This document shows, one piece after another, positions 1 through 55,557 of a stretch of 64,000 nucleotides of DNA (within the stretch, counting starts at the first letter, position 1; each line of letters begins with the position of its first letter). The position numbers were made by a program, and so were the translations under genes. The stretch lies in contig BTQY01000006.1 in assembly GCA_036986115.1 (NCBI GenBank), forward strand, positions 150-64,149, read 5' to 3'. The notes below the pieces were generated by a model that was not told where the DNA came from, did not search any database, and worked only from the letters and a program-made list of their open reading frames with translations. Source of the stretch: Gammaproteobacteria bacterium (lineage in GTDB: Bacteria > Pseudomonadota > Gammaproteobacteria > BTQY01).

Positions 1-81
1 GGAGGGATTCGAACCCTCGTGGGGCGTAAGCCCCCAACGGATTTCGAGTCCGCACCGTTATGGCCACTTCGGTACCTCTCC
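1..81 (-). tRNA. tRNA-Ser (anticodon CGA), 3' acceptor end truncated by the window edge
   Basis: Reverse complement reads GGAGAGGTACCGAAGTGGCC...GGACTCGAAATCC...long variable arm...GAGGGTTCGAATCCCTC. The anticodon loop is CT-CGA-AA and the long extra arm is typical of Ser. Confidence 0.8.
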
Positions 82-8278: not shown

Positions 8279-8923
8279 ATGACGATCATATCTAAATATT
8301 TCAATGATGCCGCATCATTTGATCGATTCATATACATCATATGCGCAGCCCTTGTACTAACTATATTTATAATTGATCTGCTGCTTCCTCTGGGTGTGGC
8401 GGGAGGTGTCCCATATATCCTGGTTATTTTAGTCGCGCTCTGGATAAAAAACCCGCGTGCTGTCATTATTCTAGCTATTATTTGTTCTCTCCTGACAGTA
8501 CTCGGATTTTATTTGTCGCCCGCTGGTGGTGAATTATGGAAAGTAATGGCCAACAGATCATTGGCAATATTTGCAATCTGGGTAACTGCAATTCTGGCAT
8601 TGAAGTGGAAACTTGACGAAAAAAAGGTATCTTCTCTTGAACATAAGATTGAAGAAGAAAAAGAGAGGATATATCTGGCGACAATTCATGGGGCGCAGCA
8701 TATAACTAACAACCTGCTGAATGAACTCCAGATTGTTAAAACTGAGATCGCTCTCCACCCTGAGTTTAGCAAAGAGATATCATCATTGTTTGGTGACATG
8801 CTGGCCGAGGCAGATACTCTAATGGATGATCTTTCTACTGTCGATCAAATTGATGATGAAGTGATAAGGCAGTCTATATATCCGAAGGAAAAGACCAAAC
8901 GACAAAGTCAGATGGAGACATGA
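8279..8923 (+). CDS. membrane protein: KdpD-like 4-TM sensor domain (DUF4118-like) plus HisKA_2/HWE-like dimerisation-phosphoacceptor helix, no ATPase domain
   Basis: GAGGGG Shine-Dalgarno then ATG at 8279; four hydrophobic helices; ERIYLATIHGAQHITNNLLNELQIV resembles the H-R-V-K-N-N-L-Q box of HisKA_2 kinases; ORF ends about 55 aa later; AT-rich. Confidence 0.5.
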   Translation: MTIISKYFNDAASFDRFIYIICAALVLTIFIIDLLLPLGVAGGVPYILVILVALWIKNPRAVIILAIICSLLTVLGFYLSPAGGELWKVMANRSLAIFAIWVTAILALKWKLDEKKVSSLEHKIEEEKERIYLATIHGAQHITNNLLNELQIVKTEIALHPEFSKEISSLFGDMLAEADTLMDDLSTVDQIDDEVIRQSIYPKEKTKRQSQMET

Positions 8924-9591
8924 AAATCAGAACTCTTGTGTCCTGGAGTAGTGGAAAAGACAGTGCATGGGCACTACATAAGTTACAGCAAAATCCGGGA
9001 ATTGATTTAGTCGGGCTCTTCTGCACGGTCAATAAAGAGTTTGCTCGTGTCGCTATGCATGGCGTAAGAGTTGAACTGTTACACAAGCAGGCAAAAAGTA
9101 TTGGCCTTCCTCTTGAGATAATTGAAATACCCCATCCATGTACCAATGCTGAATATGAGGAAATAATGGGGCGATTCATTGAAAAAGCAAAAAAAGATAA
9201 TATTGAGTATTTTGCATTTGGCGACTTATTCCTTGAAGATGTACGTAATTATAGAGAGGAAAAGCTAAAAGGCTCTGGAATTAAACCTGTTTTCCCCATC
9301 TGGGGCATACCAACGGATGCGCTATTAAGAGAAATGATTAGTGGTGGCCTGAAAATGGTCATTACATGTATCAATCCGAAGCAAGCGCCGAAAGAATTTG
9401 CCGGCAAGGAGTTCGACGAGAGTTTTCTGGATTCAATGCCTTCAAATATAGATCCTTGTGGTGAGAATGGGGAATTCCACAGCTTTGTTTTTGATGGCCC
9501 AATGTTTAAAGAGAAAATTAACATCATTGTAGGCGATATTGTTCATCGTGATAACTTTGTATTTGCTGACATTATAGCGGGAAGCAACTGA
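8920..9591 (+). CDS. PP-loop ATP pyrophosphatase (adenine-nucleotide alpha-hydrolase, Dph6/MJ0570-like ATP-binding domain)
   Basis: N-terminal SWSSGKDS PP-loop; diphthamide-synthase-like fold signatures (EYFAFGD, EFHSFVFDGP); 4-bp ATGA overlap with the upstream gene. Confidence 0.65.
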   Translation: MKIRTLVSWSSGKDSAWALHKLQQNPGIDLVGLFCTVNKEFARVAMHGVRVELLHKQAKSIGLPLEIIEIPHPCTNAEYEEIMGRFIEKAKKDNIEYFAFGDLFLEDVRNYREEKLKGSGIKPVFPIWGIPTDALLREMISGGLKMVITCINPKQAPKEFAGKEFDESFLDSMPSNIDPCGENGEFHSFVFDGPMFKEKINIIVGDIVHRDNFVFADIIAGSN

Positions 9592-9774: not shown

Positions 9775-11295
9775 CTATGTCACTGTAAACTGCCCCATCA
9801 TGCCGGCGTCTTCATGTTCCAGTATATGGCAGTGGTACATGTAGGGTATTTTGGCATTTTTGTAAGGCCCGGTAGGCACAAGTATTCTTACCATTTCATC
9901 GGCATGGACAGCTACCGTGTCTTTCAGGCCACCTTCCCAACTATAGGGTGGGCGACCATCGCGATCGAGAATCCTGAACTGGGTGTTATGCACATGTATC
10001 GGGTGGTGAGTGATTGACGGGTTGTGTAACTCCCACACCTCAAAGGTATTGGCCTTTGTCACTTCATTGATGACGTGTAAATCATACGCCTTGTTATTGA
10101 TAAAAAACCCACCGGTACCAAACATCATCGCCGGCCCCATCTTCATGTCCAGCTGTAATTTACGGGTTGTGGCGACATTTACATTTGACCAGTCTGGCAA
10201 GCTGACTAGCTGCTTTGTATTAAAGGCGGCGACCTTGCCGGCCTTGCTGGCATCAATATATAACACATCGAAGTTACTATCCAGGCTGTTGGCACCACCC
10301 ATCATACTCATCATGCCAGTACTCAGATTGCCATAACCCTTTTTGTTTCGCAATGATATGGCCTTACCATCAGACACATCAACAATGATCTCGGCACGCT
10401 CGGCTGGTGCAAGATGGATTTTGTCTAATGTTTGTGGCTGCTCCAGCAGGCCACCATCGGTCGCAACGAGTTGAAATGGCCGGTTATCTGAAAAATGTAA
10501 ATGATAAAAACGAGCATTCGACGCGTTATGCAATCTTAAGCGGATCAATGACTTTTTCGGCTTTAACACCGAGTTGGCCACGCCATTCACTAATATGATA
10601 TTTCCGTGCATACCCTGCATTCTTTGCATGCCGGAATTGCTGTAATAAAACGCGCCAGATTCTGCAAAGGCCCGGTCGGTGATAATGACCGGGAAATCAT
10701 CCACGCCATATTGATGCGGTATACCTAACTGTGCATCGCGATCTTCATCGACAATTTGCATTTGCCCACCCAGGCCGCGCCAGACTTGCCCACCAGTATG
10801 GTTATGTGTATGCGAATGATAAAAATAGGTTGCAGGTTCATTGATGATCGACCATTCTGCGACCCAGGTATCACCGGGTTTGATCGCCTGGTGTGGGTTA
10901 CCATCCTGCGTAGCGGGCAGGATCATACCGTGCCAGTGTAGTGCGGCAACCTCATTGAGCTTGTTGGTGACTTCCATTCTTACCGTTTGATTCTTTTTAA
11001 AACGTAATACCGGCGCCAGAAAGTTTTGATTAATACCAATAGTTGGTGTGCTTACTTTTGGCAGGATGCGGCTTTCACCCGATTGCAGTGAAAGCTTAAA
11101 CACCTGTTTACCCTGTATCGTCGAGCCTTCATCAAGTGCGGGCAGAGAAAAATCCTGCAACTTAATAGACGGTCGATAATAACCGCCCTGCCCCATCATC
11201 ATGCTGCCCATGGACCTGGCAAAAGGTACTGAGGTCACTGCCGTAACACCAGCAGCCACACCTAATCCACCTAATAGAAAAGTACGTCGTTTCAT
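9775..11295 (-). CDS. Tat-exported multicopper oxidase (CopA/PcoA-like, Met-rich)
   Basis: Twin-arginine signal MKRRTFLLGGLGVAAG; Cu sites HWHGM, HSHTHNHT, HPIHVH, HCHILEHEDAGMM; Met-rich segments MGSMMMGQGG and GMMSMMGG. Confidence 0.85.
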   Translation of the reverse strand: MKRRTFLLGGLGVAAGVTAVTSVPFARSMGSMMMGQGGYYRPSIKLQDFSLPALDEGSTIQGKQVFKLSLQSGESRILPKVSTPTIGINQNFLAPVLRFKKNQTVRMEVTNKLNEVAALHWHGMILPATQDGNPHQAIKPGDTWVAEWSIINEPATYFYHSHTHNHTGGQVWRGLGGQMQIVDEDRDAQLGIPHQYGVDDFPVIITDRAFAESGAFYYSNSGMQRMQGMHGNIILVNGVANSVLKPKKSLIRLRLHNASNARFYHLHFSDNRPFQLVATDGGLLEQPQTLDKIHLAPAERAEIIVDVSDGKAISLRNKKGYGNLSTGMMSMMGGANSLDSNFDVLYIDASKAGKVAAFNTKQLVSLPDWSNVNVATTRKLQLDMKMGPAMMFGTGGFFINNKAYDLHVINEVTKANTFEVWELHNPSITHHPIHVHNTQFRILDRDGRPPYSWEGGLKDTVAVHADEMVRILVPTGPYKNAKIPYMYHCHILEHEDAGMMGQFTVT

Positions 11296-11355
11296 ATCAA
11301 ATTCCTGTGTTTTGTCAGTTTATTGTATGTCATACACGTTCCATATACGCAAGAT

Positions 11356-11465
11356 CATTTGTGCTGTTTTCCTGAAACATCTCTCAACAAAGATAGCAGC
11401 AACCAGAACAGCAAACCTGTGACCAGAACCAGCACTATCCAGAATAATCCCATTCCAAAGTACAT
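11356..11465 (-). CDS. unannotated 36-aa single-TM peptide (MYFGMGLFWIVLVLVTGLLFWLLLSLLRDVSGKQHK)
   Basis: AGGAG Shine-Dalgarno 7 nt upstream of ATG; fully hydrophobic core; sits between the Met-rich protein gene and the MCO on the same strand; below the ORF-track length cut-off. Confidence 0.45.
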
Positions 11466-11613
11466 CGTATTCTCCTGTATCAATTATTTTTCCACATCGT
11501 AACCCGTATTATGCCGGGTGCCATGTGACAAGTTATAAACCCGGCCTGCTGTATTACAGATGTATTATGCAGACCGGGTCCTGTTCTGGCAGTCCTGTCC
11601 CTTGCTGGCGTTA

Positions 11614-12135
11614 TCAGGACTTCCTGCTTTTGTCGTCAATTACAATGTTGCAGGGTGTATTACTGTTGCGATGGTCAGCACTTGCATTTTGTGTTGTCGT
11701 ACTGCCACGAACACCCTTTTTCACAGTTTGGTCATGCATACCGTTTTGTGTGATCTGTCCATGCATTCCATTCTGTGTGCTTTGCCGGGTGGGTTGTCCC
11801 ATCATGCCGCCCTGCGTGGCCTGTCCGTGCATTCCATTCTGCGTGCTTTGCCGGGTGGTTTGTCCCATCATGCCACCCATCATACCGCCCTGTGCGGGTT
11901 GTCCCATCATGCCGCCCTGCGTGGTTCTCCGGGTGGTTTGTCCCATCATGCCAGCCTGCGTGGCCTGTCCGTGCATTCCATTTTGTGTGGTTTTCTGGGT
12001 TGTTTGTCCCATCGAACCACCACCATGATGGTCGTCACTGTGTCCGGTATTTTCTGCTAAGGCCACTGATCCGACTGCCAGGCCTAAACCGGCAACTGCG
12101 CCGATAAGATATGCAGATAATGTTTTTCTGTTCAT
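11614..12135 (-). CDS. periplasmic methionine-rich tandem-repeat protein (putative Cu(I)-binding, PcoE/CopK-like in composition)
   Basis: Signal peptide MNRKTLSAYLIGAVAGLGLAVGSVALA; His-rich HSDDHHGGG; at least 6 degenerate repeats of MGQ[TP]T[RQ]xxTQNGMHGQATQ[AG]GMMGQ. Confidence 0.7.
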   Translation of the reverse strand: MNRKTLSAYLIGAVAGLGLAVGSVALAENTGHSDDHHGGGSMGQTTQKTTQNGMHGQATQAGMMGQTTRRTTQGGMMGQPAQGGMMGGMMGQTTRQSTQNGMHGQATQGGMMGQPTRQSTQNGMHGQITQNGMHDQTVKKGVRGSTTTQNASADHRNSNTPCNIVIDDKSRKS

Positions 12136-12234
12136 GATATTTCTCCTTTTGTTTAAGATGATTATTCAATAAAATCATTGTTTCTCGGTTATTATTTAAG
12201 CATTCTCTTGTAACTGGCGAGTGTCTGTAACAGA

Positions 12235-12293
12235 GATTTTTGTAACACACTTTATCTGGCCGGGCTCTGTTACAATACGTTACAAGGTTATAC
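12235..12293. promoter_or_regulatory. candidate operator in a divergent promoter: TGTAACA direct repeats plus inverted TGTTACA/GTTACA
   Basis: TGTAACA at 12235 and 12250 (15-bp period); TGTTACA at 12277 and GTTACA at 12288; lies between the Met-rich gene (-) and the response regulator (+). Confidence 0.4.
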
Positions 12294-12327
12294 TGACTTG
12301 CAGGGCGTAAAACGCTAAAAAGAAACT

Positions 12328-13062
12328 ATGGATAACCAGCAACACAAAGACCATATTCTGGTCGTCGATGATGATGCCGAGATTCGCCAGTTATTAAAGG
12401 CCTATCTTGAAAAGCATGGTCTGCGCGCCAGTACTGCAGAAAACGGCACTGCCATGTGGGAGGCACTCAACAAGTCGAGTATTGATTTGATTGTGCTGGA
12501 TCTGATGATGCCTGGCGAAGATGGGCTGGTACTGTGCCGCAAGCTGCGTATCGATTCGCATACGCCTATTATTATGCTCACCGCCCTGGGTGAAGAGACG
12601 GATAGAATTGTCGGTCTGGAAATAGGTGCGGATGACTACCTGACAAAACCCTTTAACCCGCGAGAACTACTGGCACGCATCAACAGTGTATTGCGTCGGG
12701 CGCGCGCATTACCCGATAGCGCTCTGCAATCCGAGCCCGTAGGACAATTACATTTTGCCGGCCTGACGCTCGATACAGTGGCCCGCCACCTGATTTCTGC
12801 CGAGGGCGTAGTTATATCTCTAAGCGGCGGTGAATACCGCCTGTTGCGCGCATTTCTGGATCGTCCAAACCGCGTGATGAGCCGCGACCAGTTGCTGGAG
12901 CTGGTCAGCGGCAAAGAAGCTGTGCCTTTTGACCGCAGCATTGATGTGCAGGTTGGGCGACTGCGCAAGCGTCTTGGCGATGACAGTCGCGAGCCACGAC
13001 TGATTAAAACCGTACGCAGTGCCGGTTATGTCTTTACTGCAAATGTAGAAGAACAAAGCTGA
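12328..13062 (+). CDS. OmpR-family response regulator (receiver + winged helix)
   Basis: VVDDD, LDLMMPGEDG, KPFNPRELLARI and RSAGYVF closely match OmpR/CusR-family regulators. Confidence 0.9.
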   Translation: MDNQQHKDHILVVDDDAEIRQLLKAYLEKHGLRASTAENGTAMWEALNKSSIDLIVLDLMMPGEDGLVLCRKLRIDSHTPIIMLTALGEETDRIVGLEIGADDYLTKPFNPRELLARINSVLRRARALPDSALQSEPVGQLHFAGLTLDTVARHLISAEGVVISLSGGEYRLLRAFLDRPNRVMSRDQLLELVSGKEAVPFDRSIDVQVGRLRKRLGDDSREPRLIKTVRSAGYVFTANVEEQS

Positions 13063-14456
13063 TGCGTTTGTTACCGCAATCATTGTTCGGCCGGCTGGCA
13101 CTTATCTTGTTGTCCGGCTTGTTGCTGGCGCAATTACTAAGTACCCTGTTGCAGTTTCACGATCGTGGTCAACGGCTGTTTCAGGCCAGCGGCATGCAAA
13201 GTGCGGAACGCATCGCCGAGATCGTTCGCCTGCTTGATGAAGAAGACCTTGTAGACAGGCAACGGCTGGTCGCCATACTGAATGTCCCGCCATTAAAAGT
13301 ATCGTTAGCTACACCGGTTTGGCCAGACCAGCAACCCTTCATTGAAGAATCACCCAGCACTGAATTTCGTAATCGTCTGCAAGGCCTGCTGGGCAATCGT
13401 TATCCCATACATGTTGCCGTTAGCGATCAAACCGTGAAGAGTACTCTGAATGAAGACGGCGGCCACATGATGAATATGGAAAACATGGGAATGGGGGTGG
13501 GCATGACCGCGCCAGAGGCGCTGGTATTTCTTGCCCAGGTACAATTAGATGATGGCACCTGGGTGACATTTGAAAACCGGATTGATGATGAGATTTTCGC
13601 AAGCTCAACAGCGCTGTTAATAAATCTGGCAGTATTAATTATTATCGTGCTGTTGGTGTCATTGATTGCCGTGCGTCTGGCAACCCGGCCACTGACGTTG
13701 CTGGCAAAGCAGGCCGATAAGCTCGGCAGCGACATTAACCAGCCGCCCATGGCGGAAACTGGCTCGACTGAAATGCGCCACGCCAGCCATGCCTTCAACA
13801 CGATGCAAAGCCGGCTACAACGCTTTATTGAAGACCGAAGTCTCTTGCTGACTGCTATCTCGCACGATCTAAAAACACCGATCACACGCATGCGCTTGCG
13901 CGCCGAAATGCTTGATGATGCCGAGCAACGCGATAACTTCACTCGTAATCTTGATGAGATGCAGGCCATTGCAAGTGAAACACTGGATTTTTTGCGTGCC
14001 GACGATGCCCGTGAAAACGTACAGGCTGTCGACATCTGTATGCTTTTGGAGACCATAAAAGATGATGCTGCTGAACTTGGTCAAAAAGTTGAGATTGAAC
14101 ATTGCCAGTTAAACCCCTACCCGGCACGACCGCAGGCATTAAAACGTTGTATTGTTAACCTAGTTGAGAATGCCCGCAAATATGCCGGGAATGCTGTTAT
14201 AACTGCCCGTGAAAGTGACACCGCAGTATTGATTAGCATTTGTGATTCCGGGCCGGGTATTCCCGAACAACAGCTCAAGAGTGTCTTTGAGCCGTTCTTT
14301 CGTCTGGAGACATCACGTAGTCGCAAAACCGGTGGCACCGGATTGGGCTTGAGCATTGCACGCAATATTGCGCTGTCACATGGCGGCGATTTACAACTTG
14401 TCAATCGCAAGGAAGGTGGACTCAAGGCCACCCTGACATTACTGCTCCACACATAA
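13062..14456 (+). CDS. EnvZ-family sensor histidine kinase with a Met-rich periplasmic loop
   Basis: 2 TM helices; periplasmic GGHMMNMENMGMGVGM; HAMP; H-box SHDLKTPITRMRL; N/G1/G2 boxes (NLVENARKYAG, DSGPGIP, GGTGLGLSIA); TGATG overlap with the regulator gene. Confidence 0.9.
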   Translation: MRLLPQSLFGRLALILLSGLLLAQLLSTLLQFHDRGQRLFQASGMQSAERIAEIVRLLDEEDLVDRQRLVAILNVPPLKVSLATPVWPDQQPFIEESPSTEFRNRLQGLLGNRYPIHVAVSDQTVKSTLNEDGGHMMNMENMGMGVGMTAPEALVFLAQVQLDDGTWVTFENRIDDEIFASSTALLINLAVLIIIVLLVSLIAVRLATRPLTLLAKQADKLGSDINQPPMAETGSTEMRHASHAFNTMQSRLQRFIEDRSLLLTAISHDLKTPITRMRLRAEMLDDAEQRDNFTRNLDEMQAIASETLDFLRADDARENVQAVDICMLLETIKDDAAELGQKVEIEHCQLNPYPARPQALKRCIVNLVENARKYAGNAVITARESDTAVLISICDSGPGIPEQQLKSVFEPFFRLETSRSRKTGGTGLGLSIARNIALSHGGDLQLVNRKEGGLKATLTLLLHT

Positions 14457-14527: not shown

Positions 14528-15466
14528 TCACACTCCGCAATTGCTCGCACCACCAAGCTGCGCACTTGGTAACAGGCCAGCCTGGACCATCGGCTTGTGT
14601 ATATTCTTCTGCCACCCACCGATGGATGATTGTTCTCTGGCCAGGATCGTCTTGGCGGCAATCTCGTTCCAGGATTTATTCTTTAATTTCCGGTAATAAT
14701 AGGCCATCTCGATATATTCACTGGTATACCAGAAGCTGTTGGCGTTCCGGCCAATGTTATAAAGTTCATCGATACTGGCACCCTGAGACGCCGCAAGTTC
14801 ATAGAGTCCGAGCAACGCGGAGCCATGGTTGCAGTCCTGGAAAAAGGTGTCGTTATTGCAACATGGCCGGTAACTGTTTTTCGCTACTTCGAGAACCCTG
14901 GTCTCCTGCTCGCTGGTCAGATCTATGGCAGAGACCTTGTTAAAGTAACCCCCGCCGTTGCGCGCTTTACCCAGGACCCATCCACCCGTGCTCGCAAAGC
15001 GGCCGACCTGTGGGCCATAGAGCTTGCTTTTCTCATTAAACTGGGTCTTTGTGGCCATTCCGAGTGGCCACATGAGATTGAGCATATACGGCGCCGTCTG
15101 AAAACTCATCGTGATTGGTTTGGATGAAGGCTGAGTGAATAATTCCTGGACCCATGTCGGAAGGCCGCCCCGTTTGGCGTACACAAGCCTGAATTTTCGC
15201 GGGGAAATAACACCGGCTTTTACCAGTCGTTGTATGGAATCGCCGAATGATACATCCAGTGTATGCCCTTCCAGTGGCAATACCTCACGGGACATCCTGC
15301 CCAGAGCGGCAGTTTGTTTGCCTTTGACATACATTAAAAATCTTGTGCTGTTACTGGCCCAGAATAACGAGCCTGCAACGCCCCCCAGGACTCCAACACC
15401 GAGCGCGGCTGAGGTAGATATAAGGAAACGCCGTTTAGAGTTAGAGGGTTGTCCGGTATTCTTCAT
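14528..15466 (-). CDS. Tat-signal protein of unknown function (conserved CCNNDTFFQDCNHG motif)
   Basis: KRRFLISTSAALGVGVLGG twin-arginine motif; 312 aa; no family recognised. Confidence 0.5.
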   Translation of the reverse strand: MKNTGQPSNSKRRFLISTSAALGVGVLGGVAGSLFWASNSTRFLMYVKGKQTAALGRMSREVLPLEGHTLDVSFGDSIQRLVKAGVISPRKFRLVYAKRGGLPTWVQELFTQPSSKPITMSFQTAPYMLNLMWPLGMATKTQFNEKSKLYGPQVGRFASTGGWVLGKARNGGGYFNKVSAIDLTSEQETRVLEVAKNSYRPCCNNDTFFQDCNHGSALLGLYELAASQGASIDELYNIGRNANSFWYTSEYIEMAYYYRKLKNKSWNEIAAKTILAREQSSIGGWQKNIHKPMVQAGLLPSAQLGGASNCGV

Positions 15467-22390: not shown

Positions 22391-23182
22391 TTATCTTCGA
22401 ATATAGTGCGCCTCATCTGAATCAGGAAACTGTTTCTCCAGTAACAGACTGTAACTGGACACCGCATCCTGATCGTTCAACTCCTTCTCCAGCTTGATAC
22501 CGAGCAGCAGACTCTGCGGCGTTGGCTTGACGGCATCATGAAATCGTTGCAGGTAGGCCCTGGCCCTCAGGTTTTTCTTCGATTCATAACTCAGGGCTGC
22601 CATGTGATATAACGCCACGGTATTCCTTGGTTGAATCTGCAGGGTCTTTCTCAGGTAGGCCTCGGCGCTCTCATATTGCTTGTTCTGGTAGGCACAAAAA
22701 CCGGCATTGGCATATACCAGGGAAGGTGTCTTGTATAATGGATTTTTCAGGGCCTGGTTAAAGTGCAGATCAGCCTCCGCGTAGCGCTCACGTTTACATA
22801 AATACACGGCATAGGCGTTTTGCGCCTCGGCATACAGAGGATCTATATTGATGGCATCCTTGTAGTGCTTTTCTGCCAGTTGTACCTGATTCAACCTCTC
22901 ATACAACAGGGCAATCGCGTAGTGGGCGCTCGGTAACCGGGGGTCCATCGCCAGAGCACGACGCATCTTTATCAGCGCCAGTTCATTATTGCCCTTTTGC
23001 ATATAGGCAACACCCAGTTTCATGTTCACTTCCGCCGCTGTATCCGGGCCTTCCTTGATACGCAGGCTTTCCGCATTGTCCCCGCCACTGGTGCTGTCAC
23101 TACGGACGCCTGAAGTCGTGCCCTGGCAACCTGTTACCAGTACAGCAACCATGAGCGCGATCAACCACGATACCTGTTTCAC
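22391..23182 (-). CDS. pilW: type IV pilus biogenesis/stability lipoprotein PilW (TPR)
   Basis: Lipobox LVTGC; TPR repeats; position between rodZ and rlmN as in Pseudomonas-type genomes. Confidence 0.75.
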   Translation of the reverse strand: MKQVSWLIALMVAVLVTGCQGTTSGVRSDSTSGGDNAESLRIKEGPDTAAEVNMKLGVAYMQKGNNELALIKMRRALAMDPRLPSAHYAIALLYERLNQVQLAEKHYKDAINIDPLYAEAQNAYAVYLCKRERYAEADLHFNQALKNPLYKTPSLVYANAGFCAYQNKQYESAEAYLRKTLQIQPRNTVALYHMAALSYESKKNLRARAYLQRFHDAVKPTPQSLLLGIKLEKELNDQDAVSSYSLLLEKQFPDSDEAHYIRR

Positions 23183-44129: not shown

Positions 44130-44216
44130 GCCGGGGTGGCGGAACTGGTAGACGCGCCGGATTCAAAATCCGGTTCTGGCAACAGAGTGCGAGTTCGATT
44201 CTCGCTCCCGGCACCA
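44130..44216 (+). tRNA. tRNA-Leu (anticodon CAA), CCA encoded
   Basis: GCCGGGGTGGCGGAACTGGTAGACGCGCCGGATTCAAAATCCGG...long variable arm...GAGTTCGATTCTCGCTCCCGGCACCA. Confidence 0.9.
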
Positions 44217-55481: not shown

Positions 55482-55557
55482 GCTCCCTTCGTCTAGTGGT
55501 CCAGGACGCTGGCCTCTCACGCCGGTAACAGGGGTTCGACCCCCCTAGGGAGCGCCA
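55482..55557 (+). tRNA. tRNA-Glu (anticodon CUC), CCA encoded
   Basis: GCTCCCTTCGTCTAGTGGTCCAGGACGCTGGCCTCTCACGCCGGTAACAGGGGTTCGACCCCCCTAGGGAGCGCCA closely follows the E. coli tRNA-Glu architecture with CTC in the anticodon loop. Confidence 0.85.

Follow-up and report, generated by a model that had tools for sequence, protein, structure and literature searches.

What is encoded by the methionine-rich, repetitive DNA at positions 11614..12135 of a 64,000-nt stretch of contig BTQY01000006.1 (the window), and is it a gene at all? The contig, of 64,890 nt, belongs to BMS9Abin26, a gammaproteobacterial metagenome-assembled genome (MAG) of GTDB order o__AKS1, whose source was a drill core taken from a massive sulfide deposit in the deep sea. 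The minus-strand open reading frame (ORF) at this locus is a real gene for a protein with a signal peptide and internal repeats. The family to which it belongs is small, unnamed and habitat-restricted, with an unusually conserved regulatory architecture. The function that we favor, with a probability of about 0.5, is that of a regulated, disordered periplasmic buffer that would bind Cu(I) or Ag(I) and work like SilE and PcoE. The original prediction, which was made from the DNA alone, is partly supported by this analysis; the missed annotation, the conserved family and the two-component regulatory module are new.

The ORF starts with ATG and encodes 173 residues, at exactly the coordinates and on the strand originally given. 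A Shine-Dalgarno sequence, AAGGAG (12143..12148, minus strand), is located 7 nt 5' of the ATG, and both it and the start codon are unchanged across the five closest loci aligned. Residues 1–27 (12055..12135) form a Sec signal peptide, MNRKTLSAYLIGAVAGLGLAVGSVALA followed by Glu, which consists of an MNRK n-region, a hydrophobic core and a cleavage site between ALA and E that was assigned by eye from the AxA-type rule. The signal peptide is the best-conserved part of the family in the alignments and the sole helix in the AlphaFold2 (AF2) model. In the minus-strand frame, differences at codon positions 1, 2 and 3 number 100, 24 and 174 over the first 30 codons of six close homologous loci, and 841, 466 and 1411 across all 14 loci. 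Indels between homologues preserve the frame. The Shine-Dalgarno sequence, the signal peptide and the codon-position pattern together establish that the gene is real.

The gene is missing from the deposited annotation of the MAG, where it has neither an accession nor a locus tag. The deposited accessions run unbroken past it, from GMR07481 (an oxidase) through GMR07482 (a 36-residue peptide, locus tag ending _0485), GMR07483 (a response regulator) and GMR07484 (a sensor kinase) to GMR07485 (_0488). This absence, and the long ORFs that are open on both strands, could be taken to mean that 11614..12135 is only a chance open frame in repetitive DNA and was skipped by the depositor for that reason. 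This explanation is effectively refuted by about 30 homologues that retain the frame, signal peptide, Shine-Dalgarno sequence and promoter, by the clear excess of differences at third codon positions, and by the frame-preserving indels of the homologues. The omission was probably caused by the competing long ORFs on the two strands. Three of these overlap the gene on the plus strand (11525-12028, 11560-12060 and 11775-12107) and had been dismissed by the original prediction as antisense artefacts of the repeat, an assessment that holds. They are by-products of the codon composition of the repeats: nucleotides 109–382 of the sense strand contain no TTA, CTA or TCA, and therefore no antisense frame can hold a stop codon in this region. 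Moreover, the codon-position bias (100/24/174) follows the minus-strand frame, and the Shine-Dalgarno sequence, signal peptide and conserved promoter are found in that frame only. The three plus-strand ORFs, as listed, were not found in the protein collection.

The mature protein begins with a His-rich segment, GHSDDHHGGG (12016..12045, minus strand), in which the predicted HSDDHHGGG string is present from residue 32, after the signal peptide as proposed; its counterpart in the family is GHMG or xHHxGG. The repeat array follows at residues 41–141 (11713..12015, minus strand), as delimited by Tandem Repeats Finder, unit segmentation and shuffle tests. It consists of four 22-residue units (41–62, 63–84, 89–110 and 111–132), an MMGG spacer (85–88) and a partial fifth unit; the string quoted in the original prediction, MGQTTRQSTQNGMHGQATQGGMMGQ, begins at residue 90. 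Tandem Repeats Finder, the check that had been suggested, reports a period of 66 nt with 3.7 copies, 74% matches and a score of 256. The Met-rich, secreted tandem-repeat protein encoded by repetitive DNA is genuine. The unit is 66 nt (22 residues) rather than about 60 bp, with four full copies and one partial copy, and it is overlaid by a higher-order duplication of 144 nt. Autocorrelation of the DNA against codon shuffles gives z = 9.4 at 66 nt and z = 10.2 at 144 nt, and the strongest self-similarity is at the 144-nt offset, with 72% identity overall and a 97-nt block at 86.6%. The likely history is that a 66-nt unit was duplicated and that a 144-nt, two-unit block was then duplicated, raising the number of dyads.

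The methionines were expected every 3–5 residues, in a composition of the M-x-x-M type. They are instead arranged as MM or MH dyads 8–12 residues apart (five MM and four MH, compared with one MxxM and no MxM), flanked by Gly and separated by spacers rich in Gln and Thr. There are nine GM[M/H][G/D] motifs, where composition alone would predict 0.09, and none of 20,000 composition shuffles reached nine. The array is followed by a C-terminal tail (11614..11712, minus strand) which, according to the alignments, contains the single cysteine, C162, in the family motif PC[H/N], and a Lys/Arg-rich end. C162 is invariant in a four-sequence alignment and is found in most of 20 sequences.

The original prediction also warned of assembly collapse. 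Within the gene, no exact repeat is longer than 29 nt, which is too short to confuse normal short-read assembly, and collapse is unlikely. In the Logan assembly of run DRR500112, one contig of 1,452 nt spans the whole array and is 100% identical to window positions 10957-12408; its reads are very likely those of the MAG, so that it represents an independent assembly and not independent data. Collapse of the array was accordingly rejected for the window copy, and its expansion by the assembler is likewise improbable.

The mature protein of 146 residues contains 15 Met, 8 His and 18% Gly, and the repeat core is 15% Met. Only 6 of the 146 residues (4%) are Phe, Trp, Tyr, Leu, Ile or Val, and the mean hydropathy is -1.21. 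In an AF2 model built from a shallow, four-sequence alignment, the mean predicted local distance difference test score (pLDDT) is 38 and secondary structure is limited to the signal peptide. The secreted repeat protein is predicted to be intrinsically disordered, as judged from composition and model.

Relatives are few. A single-sequence search of 5.8 billion protein clusters returned three, a profile search of 1.84 billion representative proteins gave 21 matches at E<=1e-3, about 17 of which are short secreted proteins, and a 20-sequence profile run against the 5.8-billion cluster collection recovered 29 proteins. None of these 29 proteins carries a functional name or a Pfam domain; the few source names given are "hypothetical", "uncharacterized" and, in one label from the Joint Genome Institute (JGI), "uncharacterized protein YcfJ". 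Scans of the repeat protein and the 36-residue peptide against Pfam (E<=0.1) and NCBIfam gave no matches, nor did the family profile match any PDB sequence at E<=1. A literature search on the motif strings (GMHGQ, GMMGQ and others) produced irrelevant matches only. The sources of the relatives are MAGs labelled Chromatiales, Thioalkalispiraceae, Acidiferrobacterales and "Gammaproteobacteria SZUA-24", as well as hydrothermal-vent and marine-sediment metagenomes. Massive sulfide deposits, such as the one sampled here, hold pyrite, sphalerite and chalcopyrite among other metal sulfides (PMC11427306).

The family comprises about 30 proteins of 80–173 residues, of which the window copy is the longest known member. 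Common features are a conserved signal peptide of the pattern MNxKT...AGLGLAxG..AFA, an N-terminal GHMG or HH, a GMMGQTTQ string, a variable number of (G/S/T)MHG dyads, an HHA string, a single Cys in PC[H/N], and a Lys-rich end. Nineteen members can be aligned with the window protein along its whole length, and it shows the signal peptide, HH segment, dyads, Cys162 and basic tail typical of them. In the last dyad, the Met is invariant and the His nearly invariant across the 20-sequence alignment. Met and His together make up 14–21% of the mature part in all 14 members examined, whose lengths span 80–173 residues, and the ratio between the two varies, from 15:8 in the window protein to 4:9 in its closest relative, with several members containing more His than Met. 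Expansions have also arisen independently, with GAGMMGQ three times and RGTMHGQTARQDT four times in one protein (P0011) and a unit of about 35 residues twice in another (P0022). Repeat number therefore varies among relatives, as had been anticipated for DNA of this kind, and gain and loss of repeats is, judging from these alignments, a property of the whole family.

The region upstream of the gene is more conserved than the protein, with 83% mean column identity across the five closest loci compared with 57% for the four closest proteins. Fourteen loci, the window (12209-12284) and all 13 others with enough upstream sequence, share one four-box promoter, TGTAAC-N4-TGTAAC-N23-GTTACA-N26-GTTACA, with identical spacing, and this architecture is kept even where the proteins are only 34–47% identical to the window protein. 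In the window, the direct repeat TGTAAC-N4-TGTAAC is located at 12269..12284 (minus strand), with its two boxes starting at -149 and -139 from the ATG, and the boxes in inverted orientation, GTTACA, are at 12241-12246 and 12209-12214, 32 nt apart and conserved in 14/14 loci. A third GTTACA copy at 12226-12231 is specific to the window. The last GTTACA box is 12 nt upstream of a candidate -10 element, AATAAT (12191..12196, minus strand), which was detected in a promoter scan inside the conserved TGCTTAAATAAT block; the conserved -10 block reads TGCTTTAATAAT. In its exact form, the direct repeat is found at a single place in the 64-kb window and once in each of 20 of the 21 loci, always 5' of the family gene. 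Other TGTAAC-N4-TGTAAC sites in the window are chance-level near-matches only, such as one at 22440 with one mismatch. With their flanks (TGTTACAA), the boxes are equivalent to the OmpR motif TGTWACAW, which was derived from chromatin immunoprecipitation sequencing and electrophoretic mobility shift assays in Salmonella (PMC3586657).

A two-component system is encoded divergently from the other side of this control region. Matches to Pfam and NCBIfam identify a 244-residue OmpR-family response regulator (12328..13062, plus strand) and a 464-residue EnvZ-like sensor histidine kinase (13062..14456, plus strand). The regulator scores 255 bits with the OmpR model (equivalog cutoff 331) and 148 bits with the heavy-metal model TIGR01387 (cutoff 279); the kinase scores 220 bits with the EnvZ model (equivalog cutoff 415) and 114 bits with the heavy-metal model TIGR01386 (cutoff 293). 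By these scores, the system is OmpR/EnvZ-like and not an OmpR/EnvZ equivalog. Most loci have the same arrangement, with a 244-residue regulator and a kinase of about 460 residues divergent from a shared control region; synteny with the two-component system is found in loci L002, L004, L005, L008, L010, L011, L015, L016 and L018. An obligatory linkage was rejected, since one lineage (L020/L021) has both the gene and the boxes but no two-component system next to them.

The kinases are about 80% identical among five close loci. Their periplasmic region contains a Met/His loop (HMMNMENMGMGVGM at 13464-13505, plus strand, in the window), whose cluster MHExGxHxMxHMxxMGM is conserved across loci, including distant ones. 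In the AF2 model of the sensor, which is of moderate confidence (pLDDT 68.5), the loop residues 126–152 are predicted to be disordered (pLDDT <50) on an alpha/beta sensor scaffold. Compared with its relatives, the window loop has two His replaced by Asn and four additional residues (GMGV). Both this loop and the secreted protein (MHG to MMG) have drifted from His towards Met. A Foldseek search with the sensor model against the PDB gave no match at E<=0.001, and CusS was not among the matches; a homologue search with the sensor domain gave nine matches with no informative names. In more distant kinases built on this sensor scaffold, such as those from Burkholderiales, the loop at that position is variable and rich in Met, His, Pro and Gly. 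Taken with the conserved boxes, the sequences suggest that the repeat-protein gene is the most conserved target of an OmpR/EnvZ-type system with a Met/His-loop sensor.

This gene order resembles that of cpxP with cpxRA and of zraP with zraSR, in which a small secreted protein is encoded divergently from a two-component system, across a shared control region, and is the main conserved target. CpxP and ZraP are accessory proteins of their two-component systems, and the small proteins MgrB and MzrA modulate PhoQ and EnvZ, respectively. The window protein may likewise be an accessory regulator that binds the sensor domain of the kinase, or titrates its ligand, in negative feedback, with buffering as a secondary property, and the 36-residue peptide could have a similar role, as MgrB and MzrA do. 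The control region is highly conserved here as well, the secreted protein and the kinase loop carry similar Met/His motifs that shift together towards Met in the window, and a study of SilE suggests signaling to SilS (PMC5008109). Against such a role, the window protein is not related in sequence to the LTXXQ (CpxP/Spy/ZraP) family (PF07813/PF13801), whose members are folded helical proteins; it has no such domain or any Pfam match, and no helices in the mature part of its AF2 model. The member in L020/L021 keeps its boxes without a two-component system beside it, and a two-fold, free variation in repeat number fits capacity better than a specific protein-protein interface. We regard an accessory role as unlikely, if still credible; it is compatible with a sponge.

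The best scores on OmpR and EnvZ, and boxes that equal the OmpR motif, would also suit a periplasmic hydrophilin in which Met and His are incidental and which is controlled by an osmotic or acid-stress system like RisAS. Such a disordered, Gly-rich and highly hydrophilic protein would shield the envelope from osmotic or pH stress. For the sensor, the top Foldseek match, weak and non-significant at E = 0.13, is to the RisS periplasmic domain; RisS is an EnvZ-like sensor. With its Gly content and hydropathy, the mature protein presumably meets the criteria for hydrophilins. In a hydrophilin, there would be no need for the Met-His dyad to be invariant, for the share of Met and His to stay constant or for a Cys-His motif to be conserved, and since Met is hydrophobic, its enrichment runs counter to simple hydrophilicity. 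Additionally, the Met/His loop of the sensor has, to our knowledge, no counterpart in E. coli EnvZ. We find this explanation very doubtful.

Downstream of the repeat gene, on the same strand, is a gene for an oxidase exported by the twin-arginine translocation (Tat) pathway (GMR07481, 9775..11295, minus strand), which was assigned as a CueO-type multicopper oxidase from Pfam, NCBIfam and PDB matches. It is two genes away, 59 nt beyond the end of the gene for the 36-residue peptide, and a promoter and terminator scan found no terminator-like site between it and the upstream genes. Its best matches are to CueO (PDB 6evg at 2.4e-78; NCBIfam CueO 359 bits, cutoff 525). In an alignment to E. coli CueO, all type 1, type 2 and type 3 copper ligands are kept, about 39 residues of the Met-rich insert (E. 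coli CueO 355–400) are missing, and three of the four Cu5 ligands are lost, with D360 deleted, D439 replaced by S427 and M441 by T429. The oxidase has gained MGSMMMGQGGYY after the Tat signal, at the mature N-terminus, and this segment resembles the repeat motif of the neighboring protein. Such an enzyme could need a partner, or could fall outside the classical cuprous oxidases.

Cu(I) and Ag(I) are the ions that we favor for the repeat protein because of the CueO-type oxidase downstream, the Met/His loop of the kinase and the metal-sulfide habitat. Ligation by thioether and imidazole groups is the established way of handling these ions in the oxidizing periplasm, as in CusF, CopC, the CueO insert, SilE and PcoE. 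We infer the disorder, the identity of the metal, the signal of the kinase and the hand-off to the oxidase in what follows. The EnvZ-like kinase would detect Cu(I) or Ag(I), or an accompanying stress, through the Met/His loop of its sensor, and the phosphorylated regulator would then bind the four TGTWAC boxes and switch on the operon. The secreted protein would act as a buffer of high capacity and low specificity, with thioether and imidazole ligands, in which two or three dyads from different repeats close round each ion; the N-terminal His cluster and the C-terminal Cys-His/Asn motif would be functional units beside the dyads. Such buffering would keep the ions off periplasmic targets. In BMS9Abin26, ions might also be handed to the co-transcribed CueO-type oxidase, which is without a Met-rich, Cu(I)-recruiting insert of its own.

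Several observations count against this assignment to Cu(I) and Ag(I). The low pLDDT may be due in part to the shallow four-sequence alignment. A Gly-flanked dyad with Gln/Thr spacers of 9–13 residues is not a characterized Cu(I) motif of the MxxM, MxM or HxxM kind. The two-component system is not of the CusRS/CopRS heavy-metal subfamily, the closest fold match of its sensor is the weak one to RisS, and its signal could be osmolarity, pH or envelope stress. With three of the four Cu5 ligands missing, the window oxidase may not be a cuprous oxidase; a multicopper oxidase is found nearby in only two of about nine informative contexts; neither a CopA-type ATPase nor CusCBA appeared next to the module in the contexts examined; and the resistance-nodulation-division (RND) pump encoded in L016 may or may not act on metals. 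It is the OmpR/EnvZ character of the regulator and kinase and, secondly, the absence of classical copper genes from most contexts that keep our confidence from being higher.

Exposed methionines could also serve as a sacrificial sink for oxidants. The protein would then scavenge reactive oxygen species, for example H2O2 or hydroxyl radical formed on oxidizing sulfide minerals, a methionine sulfoxide reductase of the periplasm would repair it, and the kinase loop would sense the oxidation of its own Met residues. HprSR with MsrPQ is a precedent for such a system. The Met content of the repeat core, which is predicted to be fully solvent-exposed, the Met-rich kinase loop and the oxidizing habitat of a sulfide deposit are in keeping with this idea, and periplasmic repair systems for methionine sulfoxide exist (PMC7402097). 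An oxidant sink does not account for the conservation of His alongside Met: their sum is constant at differing proportions, and His outnumbers Met in several members. The conserved HH and PCH motifs speak for metal ligation, no msrP or msrQ was seen in the contexts listed, and the linked enzyme is a multicopper oxidase, not a reductase. We consider an oxidant sink quite improbable.

The favored buffer has its nearest functional parallel in SilE and PcoE, which are disordered periplasmic His/Met sponges for Ag(I) and Cu(I) from the sil and pco determinants, with PcoE induced through CusRS (PMC5008109, PMC7558416). Like them, the window protein is small, of similar size, Sec-exported to the periplasm, rich in Met and His (SilE has 10 of each; PMC5008109, PMC7558416) and internally repeated, and it has its own promoter under a two-component system encoded nearby; SilE and PcoE are disordered in the metal-free state, as the window protein may be too. 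Membership of the SilE/PcoE family was rejected on profile, pairwise and model comparisons, all negative, and on a different motif grammar. The window protein does not match the NCBIfam model NF047789 (AgBindSilE), with which a SilE sequence scores 288.8 bits. An hhalign comparison of the 20-sequence family profile with SilE gave a probability of 0.7% and aligned only the signal peptides, and BLASTP of the window protein against SilE gave E = 8. The SilE motifs MxxHxxxxxHxxM and HxxMxxxHxxM (PMC5008109) are spaced for helix formation on binding, whereas the window protein has adjacent, Gly-flanked MM and MH dyads and no predicted helix in its repeats. Moreover, its regulator is of the OmpR/EnvZ type and not of the CusRS/SilRS/PcoRS type, and its host is a marine sulfur-oxidizing gammaproteobacterium rather than an enterobacterial plasmid. 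The repeat protein is plausibly a non-homologous analogue of SilE and PcoE.

The same MMG/MGH ligand chemistry is found in the Met-rich insert of CueO. Residues 355–400 of E. coli CueO include SQMMGHMGHGNMNHMNHGG and contain 14 Met and 5 His, and CueO inserts, as in the E. coli and Hafnia alvei enzymes, are flexible or disordered and vary in length between species, as the repeat protein does in its family and, by prediction, in its disorder. The repeat gene shares its transcriptional direction with a CueO-type oxidase gene in the window. In contrast to the insert, which is part of domain 3 of the oxidase, the repeat protein is a free-standing product of 173 residues with its own signal peptide, and most family members do not adjoin an oxidase. 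Met-rich domains of CueO are proposed to recruit chelated Cu(I), longer ones better (PMC12041951). One could picture a split CueO in a new metal-sensing module, in which a separate, disordered protein that can expand by repeats serves a co-transcribed oxidase without an insert in trans. The family would then define a soft-metal regulon, so far unrecognized, of sulfide-mineral gammaproteobacteria, with an EnvZ-like kinase whose disordered Met/His loop senses Cu(I) or Ag(I). The 36-residue peptide would be its third component and would anchor the protein or modulate the kinase. Taken as one joint proposal, this is unlikely, and we put it forward as speculation.

Other periplasmic copper proteins provide looser parallels. 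The octapeptide D-H-S-x-M-x-G-M of Pseudomonas CopA and CopB resembles Q-G-G-M-H-G-Q. These octapeptide repeats, and the N-terminal domain of PcoB/CopB, are likewise poorly conserved, disordered, periplasm-facing and rich in His and Met. They differ from the window protein, which matches none of the corresponding Pfam or NCBIfam models, in being domains of larger folded proteins. Disordered His/Met-rich regions of the PcoB/CopB type are needed for copper handling (PMC12509749). The window protein also has no Pfam or NCBIfam match to CusF, CopC/PcoC, CopK, CopM or the CopI/cupredoxin folds, to which the absence of PDB matches to the family profile at E<=1 also applies.

Between the repeat gene and the oxidase gene, the peptide GMR07482.1 (MYFGMGLFW...GKQHK; 11355..11465, minus strand), annotated as hypothetical, is a single-pass membrane peptide in which the N-terminal GMG(F/L)FW is conserved and the C-terminus is basic. 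Its role could be that of an anchor or of a small kinase modulator. It was rejected as a universal partner, since it is syntenic in the six closest loci only and absent from distant ones. A conserved intercistronic hairpin (11537..11581, minus strand; minimum free energy z-score -3.8) separates the repeat gene from the peptide gene. It has 12 consensus pairs, four of which show compensatory changes across six loci, and no strong U-tract. The hairpin may be a partial terminator or an mRNA-stabilizing element that sets the ratio of the repeat protein to the downstream products.

The module is located among housekeeping genes (guaBA, xseA, der, bamB, hisS and ispG). The guanine-cytosine (GC) content is 41–49% at 8.0-12.5 kb compared with 52–58% in the flanking housekeeping genes, and the low-GC stretch spans a gene with a Diphthami_syn_2 domain (8920-9591), the oxidase gene, the peptide gene and the repeat gene. 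The low GC relative to the flanks suggests that at least the oxidase region may have been acquired later. In a second lineage (L016/L017), two genes for two-domain copper oxidases are found 1.1 kb downstream, and an RND efflux pair is found beside the two-component system. The other loci have unrelated neighbors, including NnrS, DUF1499 and LemA/M48; a DUF1499 gene is beside the module in two distant loci (L016, 10407-13450; L018, 6748-7479).

Convergent with the kinase gene, at 14528-15466 on the minus strand, is the gene for a 312-residue hypothetical protein (GMR07485.1) that has a Tat-like signal, KRRFLISTSAALGVG, an CCNNDTFFQDCNHG motif and ...NCGV at its C-terminus. Comparison with Pfam, NCBIfam and PDB sequences gave no match, and this protein, too, may have a metal or redox function in the periplasm. 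An Rfam scan of the window found only three transfer RNAs, and nothing at the repeat locus; their genes are at 1-81 (minus strand, cut by the window edge), 44130-44213 (plus strand) and 55482-55554 (plus strand).

If the favored function is correct, the family would represent a second, independently evolved case in which a disordered Met/His protein buffers Cu(I) and Ag(I) in the periplasm. The ligand grammar would be different, with adjacent, Gly-flanked dyads in place of helix-spaced HxxM motifs, the capacity would be tunable by repeat expansion, and control would be exerted by a regulator of the OmpR/EnvZ class instead of the CusRS class. Nature would also have provided a test of whether a CueO Met-rich domain can act in trans. 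The locus is an example of a conserved gene family that annotation pipelines have missed or left unnamed, for which the long ORFs that repeats open on both strands are probably responsible. With its extreme conservation, the four-box promoter could be used to trace further members of the regulon in metal-sulfide-weathering organisms.

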